Made by a program: the position numbers and the translations under genes. The notes beneath the pieces are model-generated. The model saw nothing but the letters and a program-made list of their open reading frames with translations. It was not told where the DNA came from and made no database searches. Positions 3,725 to 60,172 of a stretch of DNA of 64,000 bases are shown piece by piece. Each line of letters opens with the position of its first letter. Position 1 is the first letter of the stretch. The DNA lies in assembly GCA_963770895.1 (NCBI GenBank), contig CAVYRF010000001.1, forward strand, positions 704,481 through 768,480. The letters run 5' to 3'. The stretch is from an uncultured Acidobacteriota bacterium. Its GTDB lineage: Bacteria; Acidobacteriota; Thermoanaerobaculia; Multivoradales; UBA5704.

Positions 3725-3766
3725 AGGTCCAGCGTTGGTATCTCGGGCGGGTCGCTGGACCGCGCA

Positions 3767-5892: not shown

Positions 5893-5909
5893 GGCGTTGG
5901 TCTGGCGCC

Positions 5910-13359: not shown

Positions 13360-13431
13360 GCGGCTCCTCCTTGGTCAGGCCCCGGATCGCGTGGGAGGCT
13401 CGGCCGGCATGGTATATTCTCCGCGCTCTTT

Positions 13432-21915: not shown

Positions 21916-22103
21916 CGGCCCCCCGCCGGCGGCGTTCACCGGATCAGCAAGGTTTTTGCGCCCGGCGACCGCCCGCAGCGGGCGCATCGCGCGGCATGCG
22001 CCGGCGATTTAGCTTCTTCGCCGCGATTCATCGATCTGCATACTGCGATTCGATAGCGCCCCGCGGCCGCCCCGGTGGTCCGCCGGTCGGCACCTACTAG
22101 GGT

Positions 22104-42537: not shown

Positions 42538-43721
42538 CGCTCGAAGCAATCGCGGACCAGGAGGCTACACCGCCTGCCGCCGCCGCCGCTGCCGGCGGGT
42601 CGCCTTCCGCCGCCGTCGCCGGTGGCGAGCCGCCACCCGGCGCTGCAGGAGACGCCGGGCGTCTGGCGTGGATGTGCGAGCGGCTGGCCGTTTGGGTGGT
42701 CGCCCCGCCGCCGCAGCCGCCGCCGGCGTGGCCGGCCGCGGCGTGGGAGGACTTTCGTGCCGCCACGCAGGTCCACGGCGTCGGCCCGCTGCTGGGGCGG
42801 CGCCTGGGCGACCGCCAGCCATGGTCGCAGGCGGCAGCCTGGCTTGGCGCCGAGCATGCCGCCAACCGCTTGCGCGTCGAGCGTCTGCACCAGGACTTGC
42901 GCGCGATCCTGGCGCGCTTTGCCGCCGCGGACGTGCCGCTCATGCCGCTCAAGGGCGCGGTGCTGGGGCCGCTCTATTATTCCGACCCCGCGGAGCGGCC
43001 AATGGCCGACCTGGACCTGCTGGTGCGCGCCGAAACGCTGGCGCAGAGCGCCCAGCTGCTGGTCGACATCGGCTATGAGGTGGTCTTTGAAGGCCGCAAA
43101 CACGTCAAGCTGGCGCCGCGCGGCGGCCGTCGCCGCCCGGTCAGCGACGCCGGCGGCGCCAGCGACGGCGACGTTGGCGCCGACGCCGGTGGTAGCCCCG
43201 GCCCCGGCCCCGGCGACCACGAGGCGGCCGGCGAGCACCCCGACAACCCGCGCTGGGTCGAGCTGCATCCGGCCTGCGGCGAATGGCTGGGGGACGAGCG
43301 CATCGATCTGACCGGCCCGATCTGGGCCGGCGCCCGCCGGCAGCCGCTGCTGGGCGAGCCGGCCTGGCTGCCCGACCCGGCGACCCATTGGCTCTACCTG
43401 TTGGTGCATGCCACCCACCACATCCTGATCAATCGCTTCCGTCTCATCCAGCTGCTCGACCTGCTGCTGCTTTGCCCGACGGACCTGTTGGGCGCCGCCC
43501 TCCAGGTCGAGCCGCCCGCCGCCGCGGCCGCCATGGCGCGCGCCCTGTACCCGCCTCTCGCGCTCCTCCAACGGTACTTCCCGGCGGGCGCCACCGCCGC
43601 CGCGACGGCCCTGCGCCAGGACTTGCGCGCGCGGCTGGCGCCCGGCTACGCGGCCTGGGCCGACGGCCTGGACCTGTTCCAGGCTTGCTATCTCGACGCC
43701 GCGCCGTGGAGGGCGCCATGA
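42534..43721 (+). CDS. Nucleotidyltransferase-family protein (pfam14907/NTP_transf_5-like)
   Basis: The ATG overlaps the previous stop (ATGA). 395 aa. The motif PLMPLKGAVLGPLYYSDPAERPMADLDLLV fits the G[SG]...D.D nucleotidyltransferase fold. The C-terminal region reads HWLYLLVHATHHILINRFRLIQLLDLLLL. Confidence 0.7.
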   Translation: MTLEAIADQEATPPAAAAAAGGSPSAAVAGGEPPPGAAGDAGRLAWMCERLAVWVVAPPPQPPPAWPAAAWEDFRAATQVHGVGPLLGRRLGDRQPWSQAAAWLGAEHAANRLRVERLHQDLRAILARFAAADVPLMPLKGAVLGPLYYSDPAERPMADLDLLVRAETLAQSAQLLVDIGYEVVFEGRKHVKLAPRGGRRRPVSDAGGASDGDVGADAGGSPGPGPGDHEAAGEHPDNPRWVELHPACGEWLGDERIDLTGPIWAGARRQPLLGEPAWLPDPATHWLYLLVHATHHILINRFRLIQLLDLLLLCPTDLLGAALQVEPPAAAAAMARALYPPLALLQRYFPAGATAAATALRQDLRARLAPGYAAWADGLDLFQACYLDAAPWRAP

Positions 43722-45148
43722 GCGAGCCTGGCGCCGTCAGCGAGCCGGGCACCGTCGGCGAGCAGGGTGCCGTCAGCGAGCCGGGCGCCGCCAGCGAGCC
43801 GGGCACCGTCAGCGAGCAGGGCGCCGTCAGCGGGCCGGGCGCGGTCAGAGCGCGGGGCGCCGTCAGTGGGCCGCGCGGCATGAGCGGTCAAGGCGCCATG
43901 AGCGAGCGCCCGGTGGTGGTGGTGGTGGGCGACGCCGTGGCGCCCACCGGCTTCGCGCGCGTGCTGCACAGCATTCTGGGGCGGCTCGCCGACCGTTACG
44001 AGTTCCATCACCTGGGGGTCAACTACGGCGGCCAGCCGCACGAGCACGCCTGGCAGATCTATCCCGCGGACGGCGGCGGCGACCTGCACGGCGTGCGGCG
44101 CGTGCGCGACCTGGTGGAAAAGGTGCGGCCCCGCCTCGTCTTCCTGCTCAACGACCCCTGGCTGATGGGCGGCTACCTCGACGCCTTGGGCGATTGCCGC
44201 GCCGGCATCAAGGTGATCGCCTACGCGCCGGTCGACGCCGGCCCGCTGGAGGCGGAGCTGGTGGCGCCGCTCACCGGCCTGGATCACCTGGTGCTCTATA
44301 CCCGCTACGGCCTGCAGGAAATGGAGGCGTCGGCGGCGCAGCTGCGCCGCCTGCGCCCCGACGCGGCCGCCTTCCCGGCGCTGTCGGTCGTGCCGCACGG
44401 CGTCGATTCGGACCTCTTCCGCCCGCTCGCCGGCCCGCCCACGGCGGCGGCGCCCGGCGACTTTGCCGCCTCCCGCGCCGCGGCGCGCCGCCAGCTGTTC
44501 GTCGACCCGGCGCTGCACGACGCCTGGATCGTCTTGAACGCCAACCGCAACCAGCCGCGCAAGCGCATCGACGCGACGATCAAGGGCTTCGCGCTCTTTG
44601 CGCGCGACAAGCCGCCCAACGTCCGCCTCTACCTGCACATGGGGATGGTCGATTGCGGCTGGAACGTGGTCGCCCTGGCGCGCCGTCACGGCATCGAAGA
44701 CCGGCTCATCCTGACCGCCGAGGAGCACTTCCTGCCGGCGGTCGCCGACGATCTGCTCAACCAGATCTACAACGCCTGCGACGTGGGCATCAACACCTCC
44801 CTGGGCGAGGGCTGGGGCCTGGTCAACCTGGAGCACGCCGCCACCGGCGCCGCCCAGGTGGTGCCCCGCCACAGCGCCTGCGCCGAGATCTGGGACGGCG
44901 CCGCCGAGCTCGTCGAGCCCGTCGCCAGCCTCACCATGGAAGGCCTGCTGACCGAAGGCCGCCTGGTCGGCCCCGAAGGGGTCGCCCGCGCCCTCGATCG
45001 CCTGTACACCGATCCCTCCCACCTGCGCCGGCTGTCCGCCGCCGCCTACCAGGTCGCCACCCGCCCCGAATACCGCTGGGACGACGTCGCCCGCCGCTGG
45101 GACGATCTCTTCCAGCAGATGCTGGCGGCCACCCCCACTGCCGTCTGA
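43718..45148 (+). CDS. GT4-family (GT-B) glycosyltransferase with N-terminal S-E-P-G hexapeptide repeats
   Basis: The ATG overlaps the previous stop (ATGA). The N-terminus MSEPGAVSEPGTVGEQGAVSEPGAASEPGTVSEQGAVSGPGAV is encoded by 18-bp repeats. An alternative start lies at MSERPVVVV. The GT-B donor-binding region is INTSLGEGWGLVNLEHAATGAAQVV (E-x7-E). Confidence 0.75.
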   Translation: MSEPGAVSEPGTVGEQGAVSEPGAASEPGTVSEQGAVSGPGAVRARGAVSGPRGMSGQGAMSERPVVVVVGDAVAPTGFARVLHSILGRLADRYEFHHLGVNYGGQPHEHAWQIYPADGGGDLHGVRRVRDLVEKVRPRLVFLLNDPWLMGGYLDALGDCRAGIKVIAYAPVDAGPLEAELVAPLTGLDHLVLYTRYGLQEMEASAAQLRRLRPDAAAFPALSVVPHGVDSDLFRPLAGPPTAAAPGDFAASRAAARRQLFVDPALHDAWIVLNANRNQPRKRIDATIKGFALFARDKPPNVRLYLHMGMVDCGWNVVALARRHGIEDRLILTAEEHFLPAVADDLLNQIYNACDVGINTSLGEGWGLVNLEHAATGAAQVVPRHSACAEIWDGAAELVEPVASLTMEGLLTEGRLVGPEGVARALDRLYTDPSHLRRLSAAAYQVATRPEYRWDDVARRWDDLFQQMLAATPTAV

Positions 45149-45283: not shown

Positions 45284-45589
45284 GTGGCGATTACGGTTGT
45301 CAATCAGTCGGTCGGTGCTCTGTCCTATACCGTGTTCGGCGGCTCGACTTCGGGTTCGGGCACGGGCGGGTCGGGCAGCAAGGGTTCGGGAACCACGGGC
45401 TCCGGTACCCACGGCTCGGGCGGCGGCTCGGGTGTCGTGGCTTCGGGCGTCGTCGGTCCGGGTGGCACCGCGTCCGGGATCCAGGTGGGTGCAGGCTCCT
45501 ATACCGTGGTCTTCGGGTGGAAAACCTTCCCCAGCTACACGGTTTCGGCCTCGGGTGTGGTCAAGGTGACGACGACCGTCCAGCCGTAG
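45284..45589 (+). CDS. Small 101-aa Gly/Ser/Thr-rich protein, candidate modification substrate
   Basis: Ideal SD (AGGAGG) 5 nt upstream of GTG. The product is VAITVVNQSVGALSYTVFGGSTSGSGTGGSGSKGSGTTGSGTHGSGGGSGVVASGVVGPGGTASGIQVGAGSYTVVFGWKTFPSYTVSASGVVKVTTTVQP. Beta-strand-like ends flank a GS(T)-rich core. A lower-GC leader lies upstream. The gene is located between two convergent enzyme operons. Confidence 0.5.
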   Translation: MAITVVNQSVGALSYTVFGGSTSGSGTGGSGSKGSGTTGSGTHGSGGGSGVVASGVVGPGGTASGIQVGAGSYTVVFGWKTFPSYTVSASGVVKVTTTVQP

Positions 45590-45621
45590 CGCGTTCCGAA
45601 CGGTTGCCAGCGCGGCGCGGC

Positions 45622-46656
45622 GTGTCCAGACCTTCGCTGTTCGTCGTCTCGCTGCCGCGCTCTCTTTCGACGCTGCTCTACCACGCGATCCGCCAATCGC
45701 TGGCGTTGCGTGAGCCGCAGTGGACGACGGACGGGGAGATCCTCAACGTCCGTCGCTTTGCCTTTCTGGCGGAGGAGGGCGCGGTCGAGGGGGTGCGCTA
45801 CGTCCAGCGCGATCACGACGGGCCGCGCTTCGCGAAGCTCCTGGCCTTCCTCGACCAGGTGACCCAGGCTCAAGGCTTTGCCTACAAAGACGTCATCCAG
45901 CCCTTCGTCGTCGGCGAATGGCTGGCGCGCCAGAGCGCTCCGCCGGTGGGCGTGAACCGGCCCGCTGCAGCGGCCTCCTCCTCAGCCGCTGCCGAAGGCG
46001 CCACCGCCGCTGCGGCCGCCGCCGAGCGGCGCCGCTCGGCGTCATCGCCGAACAGCCCCGCACGCCCCACACCAGCGGCGCCAGCCCCCGCGGCCGTCTC
46101 TGCCTCCAGCGCTGCGGCACCCGCCCCGCGCGTCCTGGTCATCGACCGGCCGGTGCCTGACGTGGCCGCCTCGTTGCTCGATCGCGGCTGGCTGTATCCA
46201 GCGCTGGCCGCCGACGGCGCGGCGGCGCTTCCAGAGGCCGCGCGCGCGGTGGTCGCCGGTGCCCACACCGCCGACCTGTCGGCATTCCTCCCGCCCGACC
46301 AGGTGGAACGGGCGCTGGTGTCCGGCTTGCTGCGCGCCCGCCGGACCCTGGCCCGCCTGGCGGACCCGCCCCCGGCATGCGCCAGCCGGTGGGTGGTCTA
46401 CGACCAGCTGATCCACGACGAAGCGCCCTTGCATCAGGCCTTGCAGGCGCTCTACGGCGAAGACGTCCCGCCGCCCGCCTATCTGGACGACGAGTTCTGT
46501 CGCCAGCGCGATCAGGTGCTGCGCCGCCGCGCCAGCCCGCTCTACCAGCGCCTGCAGGCGCTCAGCGACGAGCTGGCGACCACGATGCTGGCCGCGCCGC
46601 CGGCCGCCGCCATCGGCGCCGGCGTCGCCGCGGCGCCACGGCGCCGCACGCAGTAG
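45622..46656 (+). CDS. Hypothetical protein with weak sulfotransferase-like N-terminal motif
   Basis: Candidate GTG start (VSRPSLFVVSLPRSLSTLLYHAIRQ). SLPRSLSTLL resembles the sulfotransferase 5'-PSB motif (G.P[KR]SGTT) but is degenerate (G to S, G to L). A long Ala/Pro-rich linker follows, and the C-terminal region has normal composition. The listed ORF start (45517) overlaps the preceding small gene and is unlikely to be real. Confidence 0.45.
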   Translation: MSRPSLFVVSLPRSLSTLLYHAIRQSLALREPQWTTDGEILNVRRFAFLAEEGAVEGVRYVQRDHDGPRFAKLLAFLDQVTQAQGFAYKDVIQPFVVGEWLARQSAPPVGVNRPAAAASSSAAAEGATAAAAAAERRRSASSPNSPARPTPAAPAPAAVSASSAAAPAPRVLVIDRPVPDVAASLLDRGWLYPALAADGAAALPEAARAVVAGAHTADLSAFLPPDQVERALVSGLLRARRTLARLADPPPACASRWVVYDQLIHDEAPLHQALQALYGEDVPPPAYLDDEFCRQRDQVLRRRASPLYQRLQALSDELATTMLAAPPAAAIGAGVAAAPRRRTQ

Positions 46657-46659
46657 CCA

Positions 46660-46885
46660 CCTGCAACACGCTCCGCTCACCGCTCGCCTTCACGGCTCGC
46701 GGTTCGCCACCTGCCTCTTGCGGTTCGCCGCTCGCCCTTCACGGCCCGCGGTTCGCCACCCGCCTCTTGCGGTTCGCCGCTCGCCTTCACGGCTCGCGGT
46801 TCGCCACCCGCCGGTTGCGGTTCGCCGTTGCCGCGGCTCGCGGTTCGCCACCCGCCGGCGGCCTTCGACTGGCGGCCTGAGAGGG
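46660..46885. repeat. Intergenic tandem repeat array (about 48-bp units containing ggctcgcggttcgccacc and cttgcggttcgccgctcgcc) between convergent operons
   Basis: caccgctcgccttcacggctcgcggttcgccacctgcctcttgcggttcgccgctcgcccttcacggcccgcggttcgccacccgcctcttgcggttcgccgctcgccttcacggctcgcggttcgccacccgccggttgcggttcgccg.... About four copies are visible. It is followed by a GC-rich palindromic segment. Confidence 0.75.
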
Positions 46886-46895
46886 CGCCGGCGGA

Positions 46896-48320
46896 TCAGG
46901 ACAGGCGTTGTGCCGGGCGCAGGAAGTTGGCGACCTGCTTTTCGATCGGGGCGGCGTAAAAGTCGCGGTCGCAGCGCCAGCGGGCCAGCGCGCGCAGCGG
47001 CCGGCTCCAGGGTCGGCCGGAATCCCAGGCCAGCTGCTGGAAGAATTTGAAGCGCTCGATCAGCCGGTACTTTTCGGGCGACACCCACGGACCGATCGAG
47101 CCCACGAAGTCAAATTCGCTCCATTCGTCCAGCGTGCAGGGGAGGGTGAAGCCGGCGGCCACCGCGTTCTGGGTGATCGAGGTGCCGGGATAGGGTTTGA
47201 AATAGAAAATCGGCGTCTGGAAGTCGGGGCTCATGGCGCGCAGCCGCTTGACCACCTGCAGGGTGGCGCGCACGTTGTCCTCGGTCTCTTCCGGGAAGCC
47301 GACGATGAAGGGGAAGTTGACCGCCACGCCGAACTTGCGACAGCGCTCGGCGACAAAAAAGACCTGCTCCAGCTTGATGTCTTTTTTGATGCGATCCATC
47401 ATTTCCTGCGAGCCCGATTCGACGCCGACCAGCAGGCGGCGCAGCCCCGAGCGCTTGCACTTGGCGAAGACCTCTTCGCTCATGCGCTGGCCCTGGTCGG
47501 CGCGCATGGTGGCGGCCCAGGTGATGGGGAGCTTGCGGCGGATGAGCTCTTCGGCGACCGCTTCGACGCGCTGGGCGTAGGTGAAAAAGGTTTCGTCCTG
47601 GAAGTTCACGTCGTCGTAGCGCGAGCGGTGCCACAGCGCTTCGAGCTCTTCGCCCATGCGCTCGGGCGACAGGCCGGTCCACTTGCGCTGGTAGACGAAC
47701 GGATCGGCGCAAAAGGCGCAGCGGAAAGCGCACCCCTGCGACGAGATGTAATCCAGCTGGCGCTTGCCCTTGAGGCGATAGTACGGTTCGATGTCGATCA
47801 GGCCGTAGTTGTGGACCGCCAGGGTGTTGACGTCGGCCAGCGGGCGGGCCGTGTTCACCTGCGCGGCGCCGTCCTCGCGGTAGGTGCAACCCTGGCAGCC
47901 GGTCAGTGGCCGCCCTTCAGCCAGGCGCTCGACGATCTCGGCAAAGGTGATTTCCCCCTGGCCTTGCACGGTCACGTCGACGCTCGGTTCCGCCAGGCAT
48001 TCGCGGCCGAACATCGACGGGTGCCAGCCGCCCCAGACGACCGGCAGGTCGGCGCGGCTGGCCTTGGCGGCGCGGCTGGCCGCAACCGCGTCGGCGATCG
48101 GCGCCCCGGTGAGCACCGTGACGCCCAGGCAGAGCGCGCCTTCCAGCTCCGCCACCAGGGCGCGGTGTGCCGCTTCGGGGTTTTTGGCCAACCGGGCGTC
48201 CACGACCACCACCTGGTAGCGCTCGGGATCGAGGTGCGATCCGATGGTGAGCAGCGCCAGCGGCATGGTGTAAAAGACCGCGGTCGGGTTGTACAGCACG
48301 ATTTTGTGGCGGCGACTCAT
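46896..48320 (-). CDS. Cobalamin-binding (class B) radical SAM enzyme
   Basis: 474 aa from an internal Met MSRRHKIVLYNP. The B12-like N-domain reads LPVVWGGWHPSMF. The rSAM cluster is CAFRCAFC. The ATG overlaps the upstream stop (ATGA). Confidence 0.85.
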   Translation of the reverse strand: MSRRHKIVLYNPTAVFYTMPLALLTIGSHLDPERYQVVVVDARLAKNPEAAHRALVAELEGALCLGVTVLTGAPIADAVAASRAAKASRADLPVVWGGWHPSMFGRECLAEPSVDVTVQGQGEITFAEIVERLAEGRPLTGCQGCTYREDGAAQVNTARPLADVNTLAVHNYGLIDIEPYYRLKGKRQLDYISSQGCAFRCAFCADPFVYQRKWTGLSPERMGEELEALWHRSRYDDVNFQDETFFTYAQRVEAVAEELIRRKLPITWAATMRADQGQRMSEEVFAKCKRSGLRRLLVGVESGSQEMMDRIKKDIKLEQVFFVAERCRKFGVAVNFPFIVGFPEETEDNVRATLQVVKRLRAMSPDFQTPIFYFKPYPGTSITQNAVAAGFTLPCTLDEWSEFDFVGSIGPWVSPEKYRLIERFKFFQQLAWDSGRPWSRPLRALARWRCDRDFYAAPIEKQVANFLRPAQRLS

Positions 48321-49399
48321 AAGGGCTCCGGGGTCAATGCCAGCGTGCAGACGCATTTGCGACAGATCGCATCGCGGTCGGTGTCCAGGCCGCGGCGCCA
48401 GGCGAGCGCCTGCGGCGAATTGACGATCGCGTCCAGGCTTGCCGCCTGCCGCAGGTTGCCGAGCGGCGGCTGGAAGAAGCACGGCCGCACCGTGCCGTCG
48501 GCTTCGATCACCGTCGACACCCACGGCGCGTTGCAGCGATGCGGCGGAAAATCGCCGTGGCCGCACAGTGCGGCGTAGTAGTCGTAGAGCCGCGCCCGCA
48601 GCTTCGCCGCGCCCTCGACGATGAAGCCGGATGCGAAGTCGGCCGCGTGCTCGCGTTCCAGGGCGTCCAGCTCGCCGGCCAGCCGCGGCAGCTCCTCTTC
48701 GAGCAGCGCCACCTGGCCGGCGCGCGCCGCTTCCCAGGGCTGCGGCCGGTTGAAGGCGTCGCTGCTGACGTCGGCGGCCAGCAGGCTCAACCAGTTCAGG
48801 CCGATCGCGCGGGCCGCCGTGACGGTGCCGCGCAGGTGGGCGAAGTTGGCCCGCTGGACGGTGCAGCGCCCGCCGATCGTCAGCTGAGGCGCGGCTTGGC
48901 GCACCGCCGCCACCCCGTCGGCCAGCTTGGCGAAAGCGCGCGGCAGGTTGCGGATGTGATCGTGCACGGGCTGCGGCCCGTCCAGGCTGACGATCACTTC
49001 GGAGCAGTAGGCGGCGACCTGGGTCGCGTCGCGCCGCAGCAGCAGACCGGTGGACAGCAGGGTGATCGCGATGCCGGCGCGCCGCAGGTGCTCGCACATC
49101 TCCCACAGGTTGCGGTGCAGCAGCGCTTCGCCGCCCGACAGCGCGACCTGGCGCACCCCCATGCGCTGCCATTCGGCAACCCACTGTGCCACCTCGGCCG
49201 CGCCCAGCTCCTGCTTGCCCGGATCGCGCCAGATGTCGCACATCAGGCAGCGGCAGTTGCAGCGGCTGTGCGGGAACAGGATGACGATCGGCAGCCGCTC
49301 GACCGGTTGGGGCCGCGGCAACCCGTCGGCCGCCCCGCCGCTCCACGCGTTGGCCGGCAGCTCGGCGGCCGGCAGCACCGGAAGCACGGTCGAGCTCAC
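48317..49399 (-). CDS. Radical SAM enzyme with C-terminal SPASM/twitch-type auxiliary Fe-S domain
   Basis: GTG start overlapping the upstream stop (GTGA); 360 aa. The N-proximal rSAM cluster reads ILFPHSRCNCRCLMCDIW. The C-terminal Cys-rich region (GDFPPHRCNAPWVSTVIEADGTVRPCFF...CRKCVC) is typical of SPASM domains. Confidence 0.8.
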   Translation of the reverse strand: MSSTVLPVLPAAELPANAWSGGAADGLPRPQPVERLPIVILFPHSRCNCRCLMCDIWRDPGKQELGAAEVAQWVAEWQRMGVRQVALSGGEALLHRNLWEMCEHLRRAGIAITLLSTGLLLRRDATQVAAYCSEVIVSLDGPQPVHDHIRNLPRAFAKLADGVAAVRQAAPQLTIGGRCTVQRANFAHLRGTVTAARAIGLNWLSLLAADVSSDAFNRPQPWEAARAGQVALLEEELPRLAGELDALEREHAADFASGFIVEGAAKLRARLYDYYAALCGHGDFPPHRCNAPWVSTVIEADGTVRPCFFQPPLGNLRQAASLDAIVNSPQALAWRRGLDTDRDAICRKCVCTLALTPEPL

Positions 49400-50385
49400 C
49401 GCCGCTCCAACTCCAGCAGGTAATGGTCGGCCAGCCAGGGCAGCGGCGGCCAGGTTTCGGCACGCCGCTCCCAGCGCCCGAGCAGACGCAGCAGGCGCGG
49501 GTGGCGCGCCGCCCAGCCTTCGGCGTAGGTGGGCGGCAGCAGCGCGCCGACCGCCGCGCGCCGGCGCAGGCGGAAGGCGGGACCGAACAGGCGCCGCAGC
49601 GCGCCGACCGACGGATAGCGGATGGTCAGGCCGCGCCAGCGCGTGCCGCCCGGCCGCAGCCGGCGAAAGGCGCGCCCCGGCTGCGCGTGGCCCAGGTACC
49701 AGGCCCACTCCCACGGCACCAGCGGGCCCATCACGCAAACGACCGCCATGGCGCCCGGCCGCAGGTTTGCCGCCAGCCAGCCCGCCAGCTGCCGCAGGTC
49801 GGCTGGCGCCACGCAGTTGAGGCCGCCGAAGTTGGACAGCACCCCGTCGAACGGCCGCGGCGCCGCCGGTGTGGCGCCGGCAGCAGGTGCGGCAGCGGGT
49901 ACAGGCGCGGTGGCGAGTACAGACGCGACCGCGGGCATAGGCGCAGCGGCGGGTACAGACGCGGGCGCGGGTGCCGGGTCCGCCGGCGGTGATTGCTGGG
50001 GGTGCCAGGGTTGCCGGGGCTGCCGGGTCAGCTGTTCGATGGTCTGGTGGCGCAGATCGACCCGATCGCCCAGGCCGGCGCTCGCGATCTTGTCGCCGGC
50101 GCGTTCCAGCATGCCGGCGGCGGCGTCGATGGCGGTGACGCGCACGCCGCGGCGAGCCAGGTACAGGGCGTCTTCGCCGGTGCCGCAGTTGAGCTCCAGC
50201 ACGTGGCTGCCGGGGGCGAAGCAGGCGTCCAGCCGCCGCCAGACCGCCTGGCGCATCTGCGTGCCGATGGCGCTGCCGGTGAAGCTGGCGTCGTAGGACG
50301 CGGCCATGCGGTCGAACGCGGTGGCACCCGTGGCGTCGCCATCGCGGCGCGCCGGCAGCACGGGGAGGACGGCCGGTTCGGTCAT
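49396..50385 (-). CDS. Class I SAM-dependent methyltransferase
   Basis: Motif I is VLELNCGTGEDALYLARRGVRVTAIDAAAGML. A low-complexity Pro/Ala insert is present. The ATG at 50385 lies 1 codon after the upstream stop. An alternative GTG at 50391 overlaps that stop (GTGA). Confidence 0.75.
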   Translation of the reverse strand: MTEPAVLPVLPARRDGDATGATAFDRMAASYDASFTGSAIGTQMRQAVWRRLDACFAPGSHVLELNCGTGEDALYLARRGVRVTAIDAAAGMLERAGDKIASAGLGDRVDLRHQTIEQLTRQPRQPWHPQQSPPADPAPAPASVPAAAPMPAVASVLATAPVPAAAPAAGATPAAPRPFDGVLSNFGGLNCVAPADLRQLAGWLAANLRPGAMAVVCVMGPLVPWEWAWYLGHAQPGRAFRRLRPGGTRWRGLTIRYPSVGALRRLFGPAFRLRRRAAVGALLPPTYAEGWAARHPRLLRLLGRWERRAETWPPLPWLADHYLLELERR

Positions 50386-50387
50386 CG

Positions 50388-51785
50388 TCACGGCGCCGCC
50401 GGCGACTCCTCGGGCCAGGAGAGCAGCGCCTGGTGCGCCGCTTCCGCCATCTGCAGCTTTTCGGCGGCGTCCGCCGGGTTGTCGGACTGCAGGCGGGCGG
50501 CGGCGACGCTGTTGCGCAGCCACCGGTCGGCCTGTTCGTAGTAGGCGCGCGAGCGCTGGCCGCGCAGCCGGTAGTCGCGGTCGGTGGCGGTATCCCAGCT
50601 CTTGTCGAGCTGCACGCGGTCGGCCACCTGGCGGAAGTAGGCGGTGTTCTTGATCGGGTAGGCGACGGTGGTGAAGAAGATGTTGGGGTTGGCCTTTTTG
50701 ACGTGCTCGACGGTGGCTTCGATGTCGGCCAGCGTTTCGCCCTGGTAGCCCCACATCAGGAACATGCCGACTTCGATGCCGTGGCGCTGGGCGGCGTGGG
50801 TCGCCCACTGCACCTGCTCGGCGGTGACGCCCCGATCCATGGCGTCCAGGATGCGCTGGCTGCCGCTTTCAGAGCCGATCCAGATGCGGTAGCAGCCCAT
50901 TTCGGCGAGCGTCGCGATCACTTCGTCCTTGAGCAGCCGATCGGCGCGCGAAATGGTTTCGAAAGGGCGCACCAAGCCGCGCTTCTTGAGCAGGCCGGCG
51001 AACTCGAAGAGCCAGCGGTGGTGGATGGTGAACACGTCGTCGGCGTACCACAGCTGTTCGGGCTGGTAGGCTTCGACGATGTGCGCCACTTCGTCGGCGC
51101 AGTCGAGCGCGCTGCGCCGGCGATGGGTGTAGCCGAACACGGCGTGCGAGCACCATTTGCAGCGATACGGGCAGCCGCGCGCGGTGATCAGGTTGACGCT
51201 GCCCATGCCGTGGTGGGTGTGCCAAACGTCGACGTAGCGGGCGATGTCGATCTGCTCGCGATCGGGCCAGGGGAGGCTGTCCAGGTCGGCGATCTGTTCG
51301 CGGTCCGGATTGGTGACGACCTCCCCTTCTTCGTCGCGGAAGACCGTGCCGTGCAGGCCGTGCAGACGGTGCGGACCGCGCAGGGCGAGCGCCGGCAGCA
51401 GTTCCGCGAGCGTCGCTTCGCCTTCGCCCACCACCACGACGTCGGCGCCGTGGGCCAGGTATTCGGCCGGGTAGTTGGCCGATTCGGGGCCGCCGAGCAC
51501 CACCGTCCAGCCGTGCTGCCGCGCGGCGGCGATGATGGCGAGGATCGACGCGCGGGTCATCAGGTTGGTGTAGATCCCCACCACGCCGCCGGGAGTGGCG
51601 GCAAGGCGCTGGCGCAGCGCGGCGCGCTCGGCGAACGTGGAATCGAAGATCTCGACGCTGAAACCGGCGCGACGCAGATACGAAGAGATGTAGAGCAGCC
51701 CCAGCGTCGGGTAGGGCTTCATGATCTGCAGCTCTTTGGGATCTTCGTGCAGGAAGTAGCCGTGGGTCAGCAGGATGTCGGCCAT
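50388..51785 (-). CDS. Cobalamin-binding (class B) radical SAM enzyme, tandem paralog
   Basis: 465 aa. The N-terminus is MADILLTHGYFLHEDPKELQIMKPYPTLGLLYISSYLRRAGFSVEIFD. The rSAM cluster is CPYRCKWCSH. Confidence 0.85.
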   Translation of the reverse strand: MADILLTHGYFLHEDPKELQIMKPYPTLGLLYISSYLRRAGFSVEIFDSTFAERAALRQRLAATPGGVVGIYTNLMTRASILAIIAAARQHGWTVVLGGPESANYPAEYLAHGADVVVVGEGEATLAELLPALALRGPHRLHGLHGTVFRDEEGEVVTNPDREQIADLDSLPWPDREQIDIARYVDVWHTHHGMGSVNLITARGCPYRCKWCSHAVFGYTHRRRSALDCADEVAHIVEAYQPEQLWYADDVFTIHHRWLFEFAGLLKKRGLVRPFETISRADRLLKDEVIATLAEMGCYRIWIGSESGSQRILDAMDRGVTAEQVQWATHAAQRHGIEVGMFLMWGYQGETLADIEATVEHVKKANPNIFFTTVAYPIKNTAYFRQVADRVQLDKSWDTATDRDYRLRGQRSRAYYEQADRWLRNSVAAARLQSDNPADAAEKLQMAEAAHQALLSWPEESPAAP

Positions 51786-51786
51786 A

Positions 51787-53367
51787 TCAGTTCCAGCTCT
51801 TGCTCAGGTCGGGCATCGCCGGCGTCGTGTAATCTTTTCGAATCGCCGTCGGCCGTTCGCTGCGGCTGCACGCTTCAAGCCGCCCCAGCTCCAGCCAGGC
51901 GCTGCACAGCTGATCCAGCTCCTGCCGGATCTCCGCATCGGACGCGCCGTCTACAGCCGCAGGCGCGCCGGCGGCGGCGTTTGCAGGCAGGGCGGGCGGG
52001 GCAGGGGCAGCGCCCCGGGACCTGTCGCGCAGGCGCTGGCGGACCAGCAGATCGCGGTGCAGCAGGCGATGCAGGTGGCGATAGAAAGGCGTCTGATAGG
52101 TGCCCTGAAACATCATCGCCAGGTCGTTGCTGTCCTGCCAATGATCCTGCCCGTTGAGCTGGGCCTTGACCATCTCATGGAAGCGCGTGCCGGGCAGCGG
52201 GTAGCTGACGCTGATGCCGATCTCGTCGGGCAGCGTGTCGCGCACCAGCTGCACCGTCTGCTCGATGTCTTCAAAGGTTTCACCGGCGTAGCCGAACTGC
52301 AGGAAATAGCAGGCGCGGATGCCGGCGTCGCGCAGACGCTCGCGCACCACCGGGATCTGGCGCGCGTCGGTGCCCTTGTCCATGGCGTCCAGGATCTTCT
52401 GGCTGCCGCTTTCGACCCCCAGCCAGACCTCGTGGCAGCCGGCCTTGGCCAGGCCGGCCACGGCTTTTTCCGTCATGAGGTCGATGCGCGACTGGATCTT
52501 GAACGGGATCGAGCCGTCGAGCGCCGTCACCCGGTCGGCAAATTCGGCGACCCAGCGCGGCTGCAGGCCGAAGATGTCGTCGGCAAACCAGATCAGGTCG
52601 GGCTTCAGGCTGCGCTTCAGCAGCGCCATCTCTTCGGCCACGCTGGCCGGCGAGCGCATGGCGTAGCGCTGCCCCCAGATCGGTTTTGCGCACCAGTTGC
52701 AGTGGAAGGGGCAGCCGCGGGTGCTCACCATGTTGAGGCTGAAGTAGCCGTGGGCGCCGCGCCAGGCATTGCGGTAGCGTTCCACGTCGAGCAGGTCCCA
52801 GGCCGGCAGCGGAAAGACGTCGGGGTGGCGCTCGACGGCGCGCGAGCAGGTGCGCTGCACCCCGTCCGGCGCCGCCGGATCGGGGATCGCGAGGCCGGCC
52901 ACTTCGTTCACGCACCGGCCGTTGGCGCGGCCGGCAAGGATGTCGACCAGCTCGCCCAGGGTGTGATCGGCTTCGCCGGCCAGCACGTATTGCACGCCCT
53001 CGCGGAAGTACACCTCGGGATGATCGGACGCGTCGGAGCCGGCGGCGATCACCGTGGCGCCGGCGGCGCGCGCGTGCCGGCTCATGTTGCAGCCGGCGCG
53101 GCGGCTGTGCGCCAGACACATCTTATTGAGAAAGTTGAATTGATCTTCGTAAAGGGCGACGATAGCCGGTTGCGTTTCGGCCAGGAGCCGTTCGAACTCC
53201 TCTTCGCCATCGGCCAGCATGGCGTCGAACAGCGCCACCGAATAGCCGCGCCGCCGCAGTTCGCTGGCCGCGTACAGCGTGCCGAGCGGCGCGTAGGGCG
53301 ACATCTTTTCGATCTGCTTCGGATCATTCTTCAGAAAGAACGAATGGGCGAGGAGGATGTCGGTCAT
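51787..53367 (-). CDS. Cobalamin-binding (class B) radical SAM enzyme, tandem paralog
   Basis: 526 aa. The N-terminus MTDILLAHSFFLKNDPKQIEKMSPYAPLGTLYAASELRRRGYSVALFD is paralogous to the neighbouring gene. The rSAM cluster is CPFHCNWC. It is the first gene of the minus-strand operon. Confidence 0.85.
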   Translation of the reverse strand: MTDILLAHSFFLKNDPKQIEKMSPYAPLGTLYAASELRRRGYSVALFDAMLADGEEEFERLLAETQPAIVALYEDQFNFLNKMCLAHSRRAGCNMSRHARAAGATVIAAGSDASDHPEVYFREGVQYVLAGEADHTLGELVDILAGRANGRCVNEVAGLAIPDPAAPDGVQRTCSRAVERHPDVFPLPAWDLLDVERYRNAWRGAHGYFSLNMVSTRGCPFHCNWCAKPIWGQRYAMRSPASVAEEMALLKRSLKPDLIWFADDIFGLQPRWVAEFADRVTALDGSIPFKIQSRIDLMTEKAVAGLAKAGCHEVWLGVESGSQKILDAMDKGTDARQIPVVRERLRDAGIRACYFLQFGYAGETFEDIEQTVQLVRDTLPDEIGISVSYPLPGTRFHEMVKAQLNGQDHWQDSNDLAMMFQGTYQTPFYRHLHRLLHRDLLVRQRLRDRSRGAAPAPPALPANAAAGAPAAVDGASDAEIRQELDQLCSAWLELGRLEACSRSERPTAIRKDYTTPAMPDLSKSWN

Positions 53368-53469: not shown

Positions 53470-53520
53470 TCGTGAGAATACTTCTATCCTGCACGGTCGT
53501 CAACGCCAAAGTCAATGTCG
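53470..53520 (-). promoter_or_regulatory. Candidate sigma-70-type promoter for the minus-strand rSAM operon (TTGACG, 16-nt spacer, TATTCT, read on the minus strand)
   Basis: A locally AT-richer patch sits in the 286-bp intergenic region. The −35 element is the complement of 53498-53503 and the −10 element is the complement of 53476-53481. A 34-35-bp two-copy direct repeat (gggccgcgcgccgccag(a/g)cggccagcccg) lies at 53540-53608 just upstream. Confidence 0.3.
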
Positions 53521-53653
53521 GCACCGCGCGCGCCAGATCGGGGCCGCGCGCCGCCAGACGGCCAGCCCGATCCGGGCCGCGCGCCGCCAGGCGGCCAGCC
53601 CGCATGCCGCCTGGCGAGAGGTGCCGGAGAGACAGCGGGGAACCGGCCTTCCT

Positions 53654-54916
53654 TCAGGGTGAAGGCGGCGTGCCGGCGGCGGCGCTCAGCGGCAGAAAGC
53701 GCGGCTCCGACACGACGCCCTTGTCGACGTTGCGCAGCACCAGCCCGGAGCCGCCGGCGGTGGCGGCACAGCCGGACAGCAAGACCCAGCTGTCCGCGGC
53801 CGGCACCAGCACCTGCGTCACCGGCAGGCGCTCGCCGTTTTTCGACACCACGTCGGCAGGCGCCTGGGCGACCTGCGCCCACGCGCCGTGCGGGTTCAGG
53901 CGTGTCAACACCACCTGTTCGGCGGCCGGCGAGCGGCGGTCGTACCACACCATCTGCAGGGCCCCGCGGCGATCGGCAAGCGGCAGGTCGATGCCGTACT
54001 CGGTGCCCTGCCGCCACATGCCGGTGGTGTCGCCGCCGCCCCACGGCGTCCAGGCGGAGCGCCGCCAGCTCTTGCCCAGGTCGGACGACAGGTAAGCCAC
54101 GCCGTCGGCCGAGATGTACGCGGCGTCGTTGCCGCCCAGGGCCAGGATCTGGCCGCGCCGGTCTGCTGTCACGCCCGGCAGCCCCTTGACCCAGGTTTCG
54201 GGCGGCGCGCCGGCGCTGAACAGGCCGGTGCCCGAGACCACGCCGTCCGCCTGCTGCGGCGCCGGCGTCACCTGCGGCTGGCCGACCGCCGTCACCTCCA
54301 GGCCGCCGTGCGATTTCCACTCGCGCCCTTCCAGGCGGTAGGCCCACGCCTGGTAGAGGCCCGGCTTGGTGCCCGCGGCATGCGCCATCAGCCACGGGGC
54401 GCCGCCCTCGTCATAGGTGCCGGCCAGGGTGGCCCCCGCCGGCAGGGTCACCGCTTCGCCGAGCGGCTGCCAGCCGCCGTGGTCCCAGCGCACCGGCTGC
54501 ACGCATTGCGCGCCGCAGGGCTCGACCGCGACCACCGGCCCCGGCCCGATCGAGCCGCCGTAGCGGCCGGAGGGGCGCTCGGGAAACGCTCGCGCTTCGT
54601 GCCCGCTGCCGTCCAGCTGCACCGTCCAGCCGCCGCTGCCGCCGCTGTCGCCGTTGTCGTCGGTCAGCGAGAACAGCATCAGGCCCGAGCGGGTGTCCAT
54701 GCCGATCAGCGTCAACGCCGACGCGGCGTCGCACGCCGGTCCGCCGCCCGCGGCATTGCCGGCGCGCCCTTGCACACGCTCGGGGGGCGGCGCCGCTGCC
54801 AGGCGGGGCGCGCCGGCCAGCAGCGCGGTCATCGCGACGATCAGCAGCGCCGCCGGGGCAGTGGTGAAGAGCGCCGCGGTAGCGGCGGGGCGTGAGATCG
54901 CGGCGCTTCGTTTCAT
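53654..54916 (-). CDS. Secreted BNR/Asp-box repeat protein (sialidase/glycosyl-hydrolase-like beta-propeller)
   Basis: 420 aa from an internal Met MKRSAAISRPAATAALFTTAPAALLIVAMTALLAGAPRLAAA (signal peptide). An Asp-box is present (YLSSDLGKSW). The ATG overlaps the upstream stop (ATGA). Confidence 0.7.
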   Translation of the reverse strand: MKRSAAISRPAATAALFTTAPAALLIVAMTALLAGAPRLAAAPPPERVQGRAGNAAGGGPACDAASALTLIGMDTRSGLMLFSLTDDNGDSGGSGGWTVQLDGSGHEARAFPERPSGRYGGSIGPGPVVAVEPCGAQCVQPVRWDHGGWQPLGEAVTLPAGATLAGTYDEGGAPWLMAHAAGTKPGLYQAWAYRLEGREWKSHGGLEVTAVGQPQVTPAPQQADGVVSGTGLFSAGAPPETWVKGLPGVTADRRGQILALGGNDAAYISADGVAYLSSDLGKSWRRSAWTPWGGGDTTGMWRQGTEYGIDLPLADRRGALQMVWYDRRSPAAEQVVLTRLNPHGAWAQVAQAPADVVSKNGERLPVTQVLVPAADSWVLLSGCAATAGGSGLVLRNVDKGVVSEPRFLPLSAAAGTPPSP

Positions 54917-55953
54917 CTTGAGGTCTCCCGGCCGCCTGGGCCGCCTGAATGATTGGGCTGCTGAGCCATCCCCACCCGCACCGGCCGCGCCGGCACGCCC
55001 GCCACCGTGACGCCGGCGGCCACGTCGTCCACCACCACGGCGCCGGCGGCGACCGTCGCATCGTCGCCGACGTGGACGCCGCCCAACACCAGCGCGCCGG
55101 CGCCGATGGTGACCCGGTCGCCGACCCGCGGGTAGTCCAGCTCGTCGAAACGGGCTTCCCCCAGCGTGACGCCGTGCAGCAGCGTGCAATCCTGTCCGAT
55201 CACCGTGTAGCCGCCGATCACCAGGCCGACGCCATGGGCGATGATGCAGCCGCCGCCGATCTGGGCGCGCGGCAGGATGTCGACGCCGCAGGCGCCGATC
55301 GCCCAGCGGCGGCAGGCCGCGGGCAGCGCCGGCACCCGCCACCGCAGCAGTGTATGCGCCATCCGGTAGGCCAGCAGCGCCTGAAACCCGGAATCGAACA
55401 CCAGGGCATCCAGCAAGGCCACCAGGAAGCTACGCCCCTTGACTTGGCGCAGCCGATGAAAATCTCGTGCCAGCGGCTGCCAGAACCGGGCCGCCGCCAG
55501 CCGGGGCGGTGGTGTCGTCGTGCCTCGCCGCACTCCCGTTGGGCGGTTGTCGGCCGCGGCTGGATCGCTCCCCGTCGGTGCGGGCTCGACCGCCGCGGGT
55601 GCGGGTTCGACCGCCGTGGGTGTGGGCTCGACCGCCGTGGGTGCGGGTTCGACCGCCGCGGGTGCGGGCTCGACCGCCGCGGGTGTGGGCTCGACCGCCG
55701 GGGGTGCGGGTTCGACCGCCGTGGGTGCGGGTTCGACCGCCGCGGGTGTGGGCTCGACCGCCGGGGGTGGGGAAGGCCGCGGTGCGGCGCCGGACGGCGT
55801 CGTGTCGAGCGCCTCCGGCCGGCGCGCCGGTTCGGCGCCGGCAGGCGCCGCCCCTGGACCGGATCGCCCGGCTTCCGTGGGTGCCTCAGGTGGGTTGTCC
55901 CGCGCTGACGGCTGACCGGCCGGCCCGGTGGCGTTTGGGTCGGCGGCGCTCAT
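54913..55953 (-). CDS. Hexapeptide-repeat acyltransferase (serine O-acetyltransferase/CysE-like) with N-terminal proline-rich heptad repeats
   Basis: The internal Met MSAADPNATG is preceded by a GGAG SD. Nine or more copies of (A/T)AVEP(A/T)P are encoded by 21-bp tandem repeats. The C-terminal left-handed beta-helix region reads LAYRMAHTLLRW...GACGVDILPRAQIGGGCIIAHGVGLVIGGYTVIGQDCTLLHGVTLG. Confidence 0.7.
   Translation of the reverse strand: MSAADPNATGPAGQPSARDNPPEAPTEAGRSGPGAAPAGAEPARRPEALDTTPSGAAPRPSPPPAVEPTPAAVEPAPTAVEPAPPAVEPTPAAVEPAPAAVEPAPTAVEPTPTAVEPAPAAVEPAPTGSDPAAADNRPTGVRRGTTTPPPRLAAARFWQPLARDFHRLRQVKGRSFLVALLDALVFDSGFQALLAYRMAHTLLRWRVPALPAACRRWAIGACGVDILPRAQIGGGCIIAHGVGLVIGGYTVIGQDCTLLHGVTLGEARFDELDYPRVGDRVTIGAGALVLGGVHVGDDATVAAGAVVVDDVAAGVTVAGVPARPVRVGMAQQPNHSGGPGGRETSR
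55575..55780. repeat. Coding 21-bp tandem repeats (ggtgcgggttcgaccgccgcg-like, about 9 copies) encoding PAAVEPA/T heptads
   Basis: Visible on the + strand as ggtgcgggctcgaccgccgcgggtgcgggttcgaccgccgtgggtgtgggctcgaccgccgtg.... Confidence 0.8.
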
Positions 55954-56831
55954 CGGGGATCTCCGGCGGCTGGCCGATGGCGGCCGGGGGCGGGCCGCGC
56001 GCGGCGGCGCAGGGCGCGCAGCAGGCCCAGGCGGGGCAGGCGGCTCCACCAGGGGTAGGCGCCGCTCGCCTTGAGCAGCAGCTCGAAGCGGCTGTCGCCG
56101 GGGTTGACGGCGAAGCGGGGTACTGCAAATGGATCGCCGGCGCGGCTGGATGCGCCGGCGTGGGCAGTGGCGGCGGTGGCGGCGGTGGCGACAATACCGT
56201 GGATGGCGGCGGCGGCCAGGTAGCCGGCGGCGGCCACGGCGGCGCGGGTGCGGGAGTTGTAGGCGCCGTAGGGGTAGCAGAAGGTGGCGACCGGTTGGCC
56301 GACCGCCGCCGCCAGGTCCTCGCGCGAACCGGCGATCTCGGCGGCCAGGCCGGCTTCGTCGCAGGTGGTCAGGTCGCGATGGTGCCGGCTGTGCGAGCCG
56401 ATCTCGATGCCGGCCGCGGCCAGCCGGCGCAGCGCCGCCGCGTCCAGCAGCTCTTCGCGGCGCTCGGCCGGTCCCCGCGGCGGCCGGTCCCAGGCGTTGG
56501 TGCCGCCCAGCTCGCCGCTGACCGCGAACAACGTTGCAGTCATGCCGCGTGCGGCCAGCGCCGGCGCCGCGTGGTCGCGGAAGCAGCGGCAGCCGTCGTC
56601 GAAGGTGAGCACCACCGGCCGCCGCGGCAGCGGCCGCCCGTCGCGCTGCCGCGCCATGGCGTCCGCCAGCGTCAGCGTCGTGCAGCCGCGCGCGGCCAGG
56701 GCGTCCAGCGCCGCGTCGAACTGCCCCTGCGCCAGGTAGCTGTCGGGGTGCATCGGCGGCGGTTCCAGCTCGCCCGCCGGCACCGCCTCGACATGGTGAA
56801 ACATCAGCACCGGCAGCACCCGACGGATCAT
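55950..56831 (-). CDS. Polysaccharide deacetylase (NodB/CE4 family)
   Basis: 293 aa from an internal Met MIRRVLPVLMFHHV. The NodB motifs are VVLTFDDGCRCF and LFAVSGELGG. The ATG overlaps the upstream stop (ATGA). Confidence 0.75.
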   Translation of the reverse strand: MIRRVLPVLMFHHVEAVPAGELEPPPMHPDSYLAQGQFDAALDALAARGCTTLTLADAMARQRDGRPLPRRPVVLTFDDGCRCFRDHAAPALAARGMTATLFAVSGELGGTNAWDRPPRGPAERREELLDAAALRRLAAAGIEIGSHSRHHRDLTTCDEAGLAAEIAGSREDLAAAVGQPVATFCYPYGAYNSRTRAAVAAAGYLAAAAIHGIVATAATAATAHAGASSRAGDPFAVPRFAVNPGDSRFELLLKASGAYPWWSRLPRLGLLRALRRRARPAPGRHRPAAGDPR

Positions 56832-58363: not shown

Positions 58364-58536
58364 CAGGTCTCCGGCCCCTCTCCCGCCCCCGCTCCAGCTC
58401 CCGGCCCCGCCCCCGGCGGCGCCCAGCGGCCCTGGGACCGGCGGTTCGCAAAGCTGCGGCGGCGGTGCGGCCAGCGCCGCCGCGCCAGGGAGCGCACCAA
58501 GCCGGGGGAAGGACGGGATGTCTCCATCACGTCACC

Positions 58537-60144: not shown

Positions 60145-60172
60145 CCTCGCCGCCGGCGCGCGGCGCGCTGGT

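Follow-up and report, generated by a model that had tools for sequence, protein, structure and literature searches.

Radical S-adenosylmethionine (SAM) enzymes that depend on cobalamin (class B, or B12-rSAM, enzymes) carry out reactions that are among the hardest in biology, and for the majority no function has been assigned. Not every one is a methylase, as AprD4, BchE and HpnJ are not. Among the described systems closest to the locus reported here are GenK and GenD1 of gentamicin biosynthesis and HpnJ, the hopanoid cyclitol-ether enzyme, in which an N-terminal B12-binding domain is followed by a radical SAM (rSAM) barrel with a CX3CX2C motif, and which are encoded alongside glycosyltransferases; parts of the gentamicin literature describe B12-rSAM enzymes acting on sugars (PMC4340712, PMC4039129). 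The same architecture occurs in four proteins encoded on a 64,000 bp stretch of DNA from an uncultured Acidobacteriota bacterium (contig CAVYRF010000001.1, positions 704,481 to 768,480), which was analysed as a whole and is called the window below. Three of them (A, B and E) belong to a translationally coupled operon of five genes on the minus strand, which also encodes a class I methyltransferase (C) and a compact rSAM/SPASM enzyme (D), while the fourth (p) belongs to a convergent operon on the plus strand. As in the gentamicin and hopanoid systems, the B12-rSAM genes are accompanied by glycosyltransferase genes, and in the window also by a deacetylase gene. The differences are that the cassette has up to five paralogous B12-rSAM genes and occurs in many phyla, that A and E are not HpnJ (98 and 127 bits, respectively, against a cutoff of 578), and that no hopanoid or aminoglycoside genes are found nearby.

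Of several possible explanations for this locus we favour, with a probability of about 0.4, that A–E constitute the radical tailoring module of a widely transferred cassette which builds a modified glycoconjugate (an envelope glycan, a glycolipid or a glycoprotein). This is the most parsimonious reading because of the operonic coupling to GT4 glycosyltransferases, gene fusions, the presence in several phyla of genes for assembling and exporting glycans, and the lack of peptide machinery. The cassette itself is undescribed and rSAM-dense, with all of its parts drawn from known superfamilies; full-text literature searches returned no description of it, the query for ScmC being swamped by unrelated acronyms.

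The window has a G+C content of about 73% and its raw lists of open reading frames (ORFs) are noisy; genes were called by a frame plot of G+C by codon position (GC3), by translation and by Pfam. On the minus strand, coding is continuous over 46896–53367, with changes of frame near 48300, 49350, 50380 and 51790. The first gene of the operon is A (51787–53367, 526 aa; B12-binding 35.1 bits, Radical_SAM 59.3 bits; motif C219-x3-C223-x2-C226), which has a low-complexity C-terminal tail. It is followed by B (50388–51785, 465 aa; 56.8 and 67.2 bits for the same domains; C205-x3-C209-x2-C212) and by C (49396–50385, 329 aa), a class I SAM-dependent methyltransferase (Methyltransf_25 50.1 bits, also Methyltransf_11 and 23) with a low-complexity insert rich in Pro and Ala that contains an in-frame repeat at 49884–49972. 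D (48317–49399, 360 aa; Radical_SAM 52.3 bits, SPASM 41.6 bits) and E (46896–48320, 474 aa; B12-binding 41.9 bits, Radical_SAM 75.0 bits; C197-x3-C201-x2-C204) complete the operon. A and B are separated by a single nucleotide (TGAtATG), B and C either overlap by GTGA, from an alternative GTG start at 50391 that would overlap the stop codon of B, or are 2 nt apart if the ATG is used, and the C/D and D/E junctions are GTGA and ATGA overlaps. The domain calls, gene order and coupling given in an initial annotation, which was made from the letters and ORFs alone, are therefore correct. So is its description of A and B as tandem paralogues, the two being 34% identical over their full length (E = 1e-81); their duplication is old, since each has its own orthologues of 60–80% identity in other phyla. 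The count of four B12-rSAM genes within 15 kb also holds, p lying at 39224–40816 on the plus strand.

A, B, E and p all score above the Pfam cutoffs for the N-terminal B12-binding domain (PF02310) and for radical SAM, with CX3CX2C motifs that read CPFHCNWC, CPYRCKWC, CAFRCAFC and CRYRCSFC; by domains they have class B architecture, cobalamin binding and methyl transfer being predicted activities. The fourth enzyme, p, is 27% identical to E. Placement by subfamily models, which had been proposed as a check, was carried out with NCBIfam, membership being judged by the trusted cutoff over the whole protein, and none of A–E or p reached that of any named family. For the B12-rSAM families (HpnJ, BchE, HpnR, PhpK, ApyD, BzaD, AprD4 and others) the best scores were about 80–127 bits against cutoffs of 360–750. 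The best match was HpnJ for A and E at the scores given above, BchE for B (120 bits, cutoff 481) and the “ladderane” lipid model (lipid biosynthesis B12-binding/radical SAM) for p (80 bits, cutoff 360), while C matched CpaM best (61 bits, cutoff 180), with BchM also among its matches. Relatives of the B12-rSAM enzymes in the PDB are remote only (AprD4, OxsB, TsrM, TokK, CysS and 9ccb; for B these are 9ccb, CysS, AprD4 and OxsB).

Near-identical proteins carry JGI names that would assign A and B as anaerobic Mg-protoporphyrin IX monomethyl ester cyclase and D as Fe-coproporphyrin III synthase, and these names, together with the sub-threshold NCBIfam matches of B to BchE, of D to NirJ, AhbC and AhbD, and of C to CpaM and BchM, imply modification of a tetrapyrrole or corrinoid cofactor. 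We consider this very improbable, as the scores lie 4- to 10-fold under the family cutoffs and no tetrapyrrole biosynthesis genes occur in the window or among the families listed in the neighbourhood census described below. Moreover, most carriers are non-phototrophs, judging by record titles, and no cobalamin riboswitch or other Rfam element was detected in the window or in four related loci. The JGI names represent similarity-based over-annotation.

The cysteine cluster of D was initially described as N-terminal, a description that applies only to its ordinary rSAM motif CX3CX2C (C47/C51/C54). Its SPASM cysteines are C-terminal (C289-x12-G302-x4-C307, then C346-x2-C349-x-C351, in a protein that ends at residue 360), and the SPASM domain (PF13186) scores 41.6 bits against a cutoff of 21.5, so that D combines an rSAM core with a C-terminal auxiliary-cluster domain. 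Compared with the full seven-cysteine motif (CX9-15GX4C...CX2CX5CX3C...C), D has the first half and a shortened second half, and its five C-terminal cysteines are consistent with one auxiliary cluster, possibly two. Across 21 diverse homologues from several phyla, about 140 positions do not vary. In the AlphaFold2 (AF2) model, with a mean confidence (pLDDT) of 82, residues 1–28 are disordered and the barrel starts at about residue 38, leaving no N-terminal RiPP recognition element (RRE; RiPP, ribosomally synthesised and post-translationally modified peptide); the initial annotation had likewise seen no RRE or PqqD-like domain, and none was matched by any protein of the window. The best PDB match of D, both in sequence (E = 1.2e-9) and in fold (TM-scores 0.67/0.73), is BlsE (7vob), the cytosylglucuronate decarboxylase of blasticidin S biosynthesis, which acts on a sugar and is similarly a compact rSAM enzyme with a C-terminal auxiliary-cluster domain and no RRE. 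The two differ in that they are only 17% identical, that the BlsE model gives D no more than 48 bits (cutoff 400), and that the second half of the SPASM motif of D is truncated. SkfB, which is also a remote sequence relative in the PDB, CteB, SuiB, MoaA and viperin are the next fold matches, and in NCBIfam the archaeal PTO1314 family is best (69 bits, cutoff 306), with NirJ at 65 bits (cutoff 515). The model gives a hint that D is a compact enzyme of the small-molecule type.

Relatives of D are widespread, with more than 6000 at E ≤ 1e-10 in the protein collection, of which the best 120 are 63–76% identical, apart from one near-identical sequence (98%), and have named sources in several phyla. 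A scan of species-representative genomes gave at least 511 stretches with a D relative, from which the best 80 loci were taken for comparison; a subset of 40 has at least 8 kb of flank on both sides. D is 47–76% identical across at least eight phyla (Acidobacteriota, Gemmatimonadota, Chloroflexota, Armatimonadota, Planctomycetota, Latescibacterota, Bacteroidota and Proteobacteria), and the hosts of the 80 loci include Thermoanaerobaculia, Holophagales, Gemmatimonadota, Chloroflexota (Anaerolineae, Roseiflexaceae, Thermomicrobia) and Chthonomonadia as well as Planctomycetota, Latescibacterota, Bacteroidota, Ignavibacteria and several Proteobacteria. No D relative was found in the plasmid collection. 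In tblastn searches with the window proteins, the complete A-B-C-D-E block was recovered at orthologue-level identity in 21 of the 80 loci, a recurrence which places the arrangement far beyond chance. Individually, orthologues were found for A in 51 loci (47–74% identity), for B in 36 (49–80%), for E in 32 (50–78%) and for p in 24 (57–79%), and the HemK-like methyltransferase encoded beside p was found in 37, the pair of HemK-like and p genes being a frequent neighbour. The closest syntenic relative, a metagenome-assembled genome of Thermoanaerobaculia (L006), matches the window over 13 genes from Wzx to p with 46–80% amino acid identity, so that the window most likely derives from a Thermoanaerobaculia-like acidobacterium and not from an actinomycete. 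A locus has between 0 and 5 B12-rSAM genes, with 2–4 being usual in the 40 full-flank loci. Two loci that have D only (L044 and L061) have neighbours without a functional clue.

A further regularity concerns the spacing of these genes: for 111 of the 181 B12-rSAM genes in 83 loci (L001–L083), a class I methyltransferase domain is encoded no more than 700 bp away on the same strand. Such recurrent pairs include B-C and HemK-like/p in the window.

The neighbours of the cassette were typed by ORF clustering, profile searches, and Pfam and NCBIfam assignment of representatives. Recurrent partners are GT4, an amidohydrolase of the MtaD/guanine-deaminase type, an HPr-kinase-like P-loop protein, an NTP_transf_5 nucleotidyltransferase, GT87, Wzx-type flippases and extra class I methyltransferases. 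An extra methyltransferase was present in 36 of the 40 full-flank loci, GT4 or GT87 in 23, the HPr-kinase-like gene (a weak match to Pfam ScmC) in 18, the amidohydrolase in 15, NTP_transf_5 in 11, and Wzx or GT87 in 9. A census by Pfam took in 193 ORFs outside the core from the neighbourhoods of about 30 loci, with 25 families listed per batch. Methyltransferases and GT4 headed it (Glycos_transf_1 with 4 and 10 members), and amidohydrolase, NTP_transf_5, GT87, Polysacc_synt and GT9 were listed as well, whereas PqqD, peptidases, lanthipeptide or YcaO-type enzymes and other RiPP hallmarks were absent from the families listed. Across phyla, the block and its partners share operons with GT4 and often lie beside an initiating phosphoglycosyl transferase, GT2, GT87, Wzx, Wza or dTDP-sugar genes.

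The cultured bacterium Gemmatirosa kalamazoonensis (CP007128.1:945771-966817) provides an example, with the order NTP_transf_5, B12-rSAM, methyltransferase, methyltransferase, B12-rSAM, methyltransferase, D, amidohydrolase, GT4, GT4 and ScmC-like, mostly stop/start-coupled and with no room for a small gene; this operon adjoins Bac_transf, GT4 and GT2 genes. A metagenomic locus (L083) adds GT2, genes of the RmlC/RmlD type and a Wza exporter. A single methyltransferase family occurs as fusion partner both of D (in P0056) and of GT4 (in L037), with methyltransferase domains that share 53% identity over 227 aa (E = 5e-60); these fusions place D in one pathway with a glycosyltransferase.

Glycan-type genes also adjoin the cassette in the window itself. 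Upstream of A, the minus strand at 53654–61063 encodes by Pfam a secreted protein of unknown function, a hexapeptide acyltransferase, a polysaccharide deacetylase, a GT4 (56828–58363), a Wzx-type flippase (58537–60144) and a GT2 (60173–61063), this group being conserved in L006 only; a second GT4 gene (43718–45148) belongs to the plus-strand operon, and GT4, GT87 and Wzx are likewise present in related loci. The window thereby has the glycosyltransferases and the flippase that mark a Wzx/Wzy-type locus for a polyprenol-linked glycan.

In many other loci a further gene lies next to D. The amidohydrolase gene directly follows the D homologue in L081 (11044–12270) and in 22 other loci, and is coupled to it in Gemmatimonadota, Chloroflexota and others, though it is not present in the window. 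The enzyme may be a deaminase of 5'-deoxyadenosine or S-adenosylhomocysteine that clears inhibitory by-products of many rSAM methylases.

Several points speak against a glycoconjugate as the product. No initiating phosphoglycosyl transferase was detected among the window ORFs scanned, nor was a polymerase or ligase found there; Bac_transf lies beside the cassette in Gemmatirosa, and Wza in L083. Several loci with A–E genes (e.g. L018, L013 and L004) have no glycosyltransferase within 10 kb, so that the association is statistical and not obligatory. No characterised homologue of the cassette enzymes was found, and as the similarity to HpnJ, BchE, ApyD and PhpK is equally weak, the chemistry cannot be derived from homology. 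The HPr-kinase-like and NTP_transf_5 enzymes are so far known to act only on peptides (PMC8498205), and the combination of one SPASM-type rSAM enzyme with several B12-rSAM enzymes is equally that of lipid-tailoring clusters in archaea (PMC11214058).

The last point introduces an alternative in which D bridges alkyl chains or forms C-C bonds between them, as do Tes and Gms, and A, B and E methylate or cyclise them in the manner of Gmm, GrsA/B or HpnP/R, the product being a glycolipid or membrane-spanning lipid whose head group is built by the glycosyltransferases. GT4 and GT87 are indeed the pair used for glycolipids of the phosphatidylinositol-mannoside type. The archaeal glycerol dialkyl glycerol tetraether (GDGT) clusters combine gms, which encodes a SPASM/twitch rSAM enzyme, with the B12-rSAM genes gmm and grs (grsA/B) (PMC11214058; PMC13459092). 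The best NCBIfam matches also point to lipids (HpnJ for A and E, the lipid biosynthesis model for p, the archaeal PTO1314 for D), and several A–E loci have neither a peptide gene nor a glycosyltransferase nearby. However, all of these matches are far below their cutoffs, and the solved Tes structures are neither in the top 50 fold matches of D nor among its sequence matches. In bacteria, gms homologues are found together with tes or mss (PMC11214058), while no such partner was seen with the cassette, which lies in a glycosyltransferase-rich context: Radical_SAM is not among the 25 families listed per batch for the non-core neighbours, no recurrent extra rSAM gene was observed, and among the families listed none for lipid synthesis occurs in more than two of these neighbours. 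The taxa in which the cassette occurs are not known as producers of branched GDGTs. Taken together, we regard lipid-chain tailoring as quite unlikely.

The convergent operon on the plus strand starts with the HemK/MTQ2-like N-methyltransferase (38469–39227; MTS 58.6 bits, NPPF motif, TIGR00537 85.6 bits against a cutoff of 87), whose stop codon is overlapped by the ATG of p (39224–40816; ATGA). Then follow an HPr-kinase-like/ScmC-like P-loop protein (40813–42537; GRSGQGKTT), which has weak matches to Pfam Hpr_kinase_C and to NCBIfam HprK_rel_A/B (29–42 bits for such proteins, cutoff 200) and a tandem-repeat insert of about 250 residues of Ala, Thr and Ser, the NTP_transf_5 nucleotidyltransferase (42534–43721; PF14907, 106 bits), and the distantly MshA-like GT4 with an N-terminal repeat (43718–45148). 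The last two genes encode a small conserved protein of about 100 aa (45284–45589), rich in Gly, Ser and Thr, and a conserved protein, p_unk (45517–46656, with a probable start near 45622), which always follows the small protein. A resemblance of p_unk to sulfotransferases was confined to motifs; Pfam, NCBIfam and PDB profile searches returned nothing, and the sulfotransferase assignment was not kept.

Adjacent genes for an HPr-kinase-like protein and an NTP_transf_5 protein, here together with a glycosyltransferase, are also a feature of the phosphorylated and phosphoglycosylated lasso peptides (paeninodin, pseudomycoidin), where an HPr-kinase homologue phosphorylates a serine and the nucleotidyltransferase adds hexoses to that phosphate (PMC8498205). 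In contrast to these systems, no lasso cyclase, protease, precursor or PqqD is encoded in the window or in the related loci, and mostly the pair occurs without any small ORF. The SynChlorMet (SCM) cassette, suggested by the ScmC-like gene, is not matched either (ScmC 20.6 bits against 125, ScmE 57.4 against 400, ScmF 44.1 against 400; no PqqD), and homologues of the cassette have only a weak ScmC match (PF27840) in precomputed Pfam assignments.

The small protein belongs to a real family, with 45 clusters of 82–120 aa and no Pfam domain in the database search, that is conserved from an N-terminal MAITIVNQS to a C-terminal YTVVFGW..FPSYTVSASGVV, while a Gly/Ser/Thr segment varies in length. The AF2 model, of low confidence (pLDDT 63), predicts a fold of seven beta strands with a disordered loop at residues 23–48, and had no significant match in the PDB. 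Homologues are encoded at the same position, directly after GT4, in L006, L027, L082, L084 and L085. In two of these (L084 and L085) the order is methyltransferase, B12-rSAM (p), ScmC-like, NTP_transf_5, GT4, small protein and unknown protein, with no A–E genes within 10 kb, while all-against-all BLAST of ORFs, a composition scan and a hidden Markov model of the family detected the protein only in the window, in L006, in L082 and weakly in L027; it is missing from about 79 of 83 loci, Gemmatirosa included. Being confined to the plus-strand cassette of one lineage and occurring without A–E, it is not a general substrate of A–E; it could be a lineage-specific acceptor or accessory protein.

These data bear on the possibility that the locus encodes a RiPP-like or other protein modification, in which the B12-rSAM enzymes C-methylate residues of the small protein, whose composition is rich in Gly, Ser, Thr and Val, D epimerises or cross-links it, the HemK-like enzyme N-methylates it, and the kinase, nucleotidyltransferase and GT4 phosphoglycosylate Ser or Thr. 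Conservation of the small gene and its position directly after GT4 would suit such a function, as would the peptide serines modified by the only characterised homologues of the HPr-kinase-like/nucleotidyltransferase pair and the protein glutamines methylated by the HemK family. A set of C-methyltransferases, a second rSAM enzyme and an N-methyltransferase also has its parallel in proteusin (polytheonamide-type) pathways, with their multiple B12-rSAM C-methyltransferases, and this was the analogy that the initial annotation had drawn. The analogy is not supported, as there is no NHLP or Nif11 precursor, PqqD/RRE or leader peptidase in the window, and the RiPP C-methyltransferase model TIGR03975 (rSAM_ocin_1) gives 54.9, 72.4, 61.2 and 55.8 bits for A, B, E and p against a cutoff of 281.85. 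Peptidases and peptide exporters are missing from the window proteins and from the families listed in the census, and the small protein, conserved over its full length and, by prediction, a folded seven-strand beta domain apart from a single disordered loop, does not have the form of a leader plus core. Nor is there a conserved precursor elsewhere: all-against-all BLAST of ORFs of at least 25 aa, a composition scan and a small-protein HMM disclosed no small ORF common to the 80 loci. A peptide or protein substrate is thus unlikely. Placement of the enzymes in lipid or cofactor families, such as hopanoid or bacteriochlorophyll methylases, together with conserved synteny lacking any peptide, had been named beforehand as the outcome that would speak against a peptide; the synteny without a peptide was found, a place in the hopanoid or bacteriochlorophyll families was not. 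Leaving the substrate open between the small ORF, a glycan and a lipid was right, with a glycan fitting the context best, while the small ORF has turned out to be a real gene, although one of the convergent operon that occurs without A–E.

If the product is a glycoconjugate, as we favour, GT4 enzymes would assemble sugars on a carrier, and the HPr-kinase-like P-loop and NTP_transf_5 proteins may attach a sugar through a phosphodiester, like their relatives that act on lasso peptides. From the enzyme classes we infer that A, B, E and p would each cleave SAM to a 5'-deoxyadenosyl radical that abstracts hydrogen from an unactivated carbon, which would then receive a methyl group from methylcobalamin, as in the C-methylations by GenK and GenD1, or undergo a ring rearrangement of the HpnJ type. 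D, compact, BlsE-like and without an RRE, would generate a sugar radical and use its auxiliary cluster for oxidation, decarboxylation or epimerisation, whereas C and the HemK-like enzyme would add O- or N-methyl groups. In the lineage of the window, the small beta-sandwich protein may serve as acceptor with its Gly/Ser/Thr loop, whereas a polyprenol-linked glycan is the more likely acceptor in other phyla. A hitherto undescribed hybrid product of both operons can also be envisaged, with the loop of the small protein phosphorylated by the HPr-kinase-like enzyme and glycosylated by NTP_transf_5 and GT4, the sugars or loop residues then being repeatedly C-methylated or rearranged by the four B12-rSAM enzymes and the SPASM enzyme, and the same tailoring set re-used on lipid-linked glycans in other phyla; we hold this to be rather improbable. 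The probability left by the glycoconjugate, RiPP-like, lipid and tetrapyrrole readings goes to something else, and several A–E loci, such as L018, have no informative neighbour.

The cassette unites up to five B12-rSAM enzymes with a SPASM enzyme, shows unusually high identity across phyla of soil, sediment and wastewater, most of them uncultured, and has its ties to glycosyltransferases and not to peptides. If it does act on a glycoconjugate, it would represent a widespread and chemically undescribed modification of bacterial envelope sugars that requires B12, and a source of new catalysts for the functionalisation of C-H bonds in carbohydrates. The case advises caution towards automatic names such as BchE-type cyclase or Fe-coproporphyrin synthase, and equally towards attaching a RiPP label to every rSAM-dense cluster. 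As Gemmatirosa kalamazoonensis KBS708 is a cultured carrier of a version of the cassette, the question is directly testable.

The non-coding parts of the locus are marked by repeats. In the 286 bp gap upstream of A there is a consensus match to a sigma-70-like promoter (TTGACG-17-TATTCT, minus strand, 53475–53503), and just upstream of it a 33 bp direct repeat (53532–53602; 2.2 copies, 92% match), which could be a regulator binding site. The gap between the convergent operons, from p_unk to E, is filled by a 48 bp tandem repeat (46680–46856; 3.8 copies, 90% match) in which no intrinsic-terminator-like site was found; no tRNA was found either. In L082, the closest metagenomic relative, a VapB/VapC (PIN) toxin-antitoxin pair (12669–13264) is inserted exactly between the two operons, which are otherwise still adjacent. 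In-frame low-complexity tandem repeats occur within coding genes, in the HPr-kinase-like gene (41283–41712), at the N-terminus of GT4 (43710–43904), in C (49884–49972) and in the region upstream of the hexapeptide transferase (55577–55769). They are absent or shorter in the orthologues of L006 and L082, and expansion of coding repeats looks like a trait of the genome from which the window derives.

Both loci that have the small-protein cassette without A–E carry, behind it, genes for a TonB-dependent receptor and a DedA/VTT-domain protein (L084, 10999–13518; L085, 10996–13649), and separate genes for an FkbM methyltransferase and a GT4 adjoin their cassettes. In the window, an FkbM-type methyltransferase fused to GT4 (643 aa) is encoded at 11443–13374 on the minus strand, and this gene may belong to the same pathway.

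A single non-ribosomal peptide synthetase (NRPS) of 4115 aa is encoded on the plus strand at 22101–34448, with matches to three AMP-binding, four condensation and four PP-binding domains and one thioesterase. It is separated from the rSAM cassette by genes of the Usp, Nramp, glyoxalase and IdeR types and is probably a separate cluster; an actinomycete biosynthetic gene cluster linked to this NRPS was ruled out, the closest syntenic relative being L006 from Thermoanaerobaculia. Apparently unrelated to the cassette are a PEP-mutase-superfamily protein (19222–20058, minus strand, 257 bits) and a double-domain KaiC-like ATPase (4105–6741, minus strand) encoded beside a hybrid histidine kinase (1268–3766).

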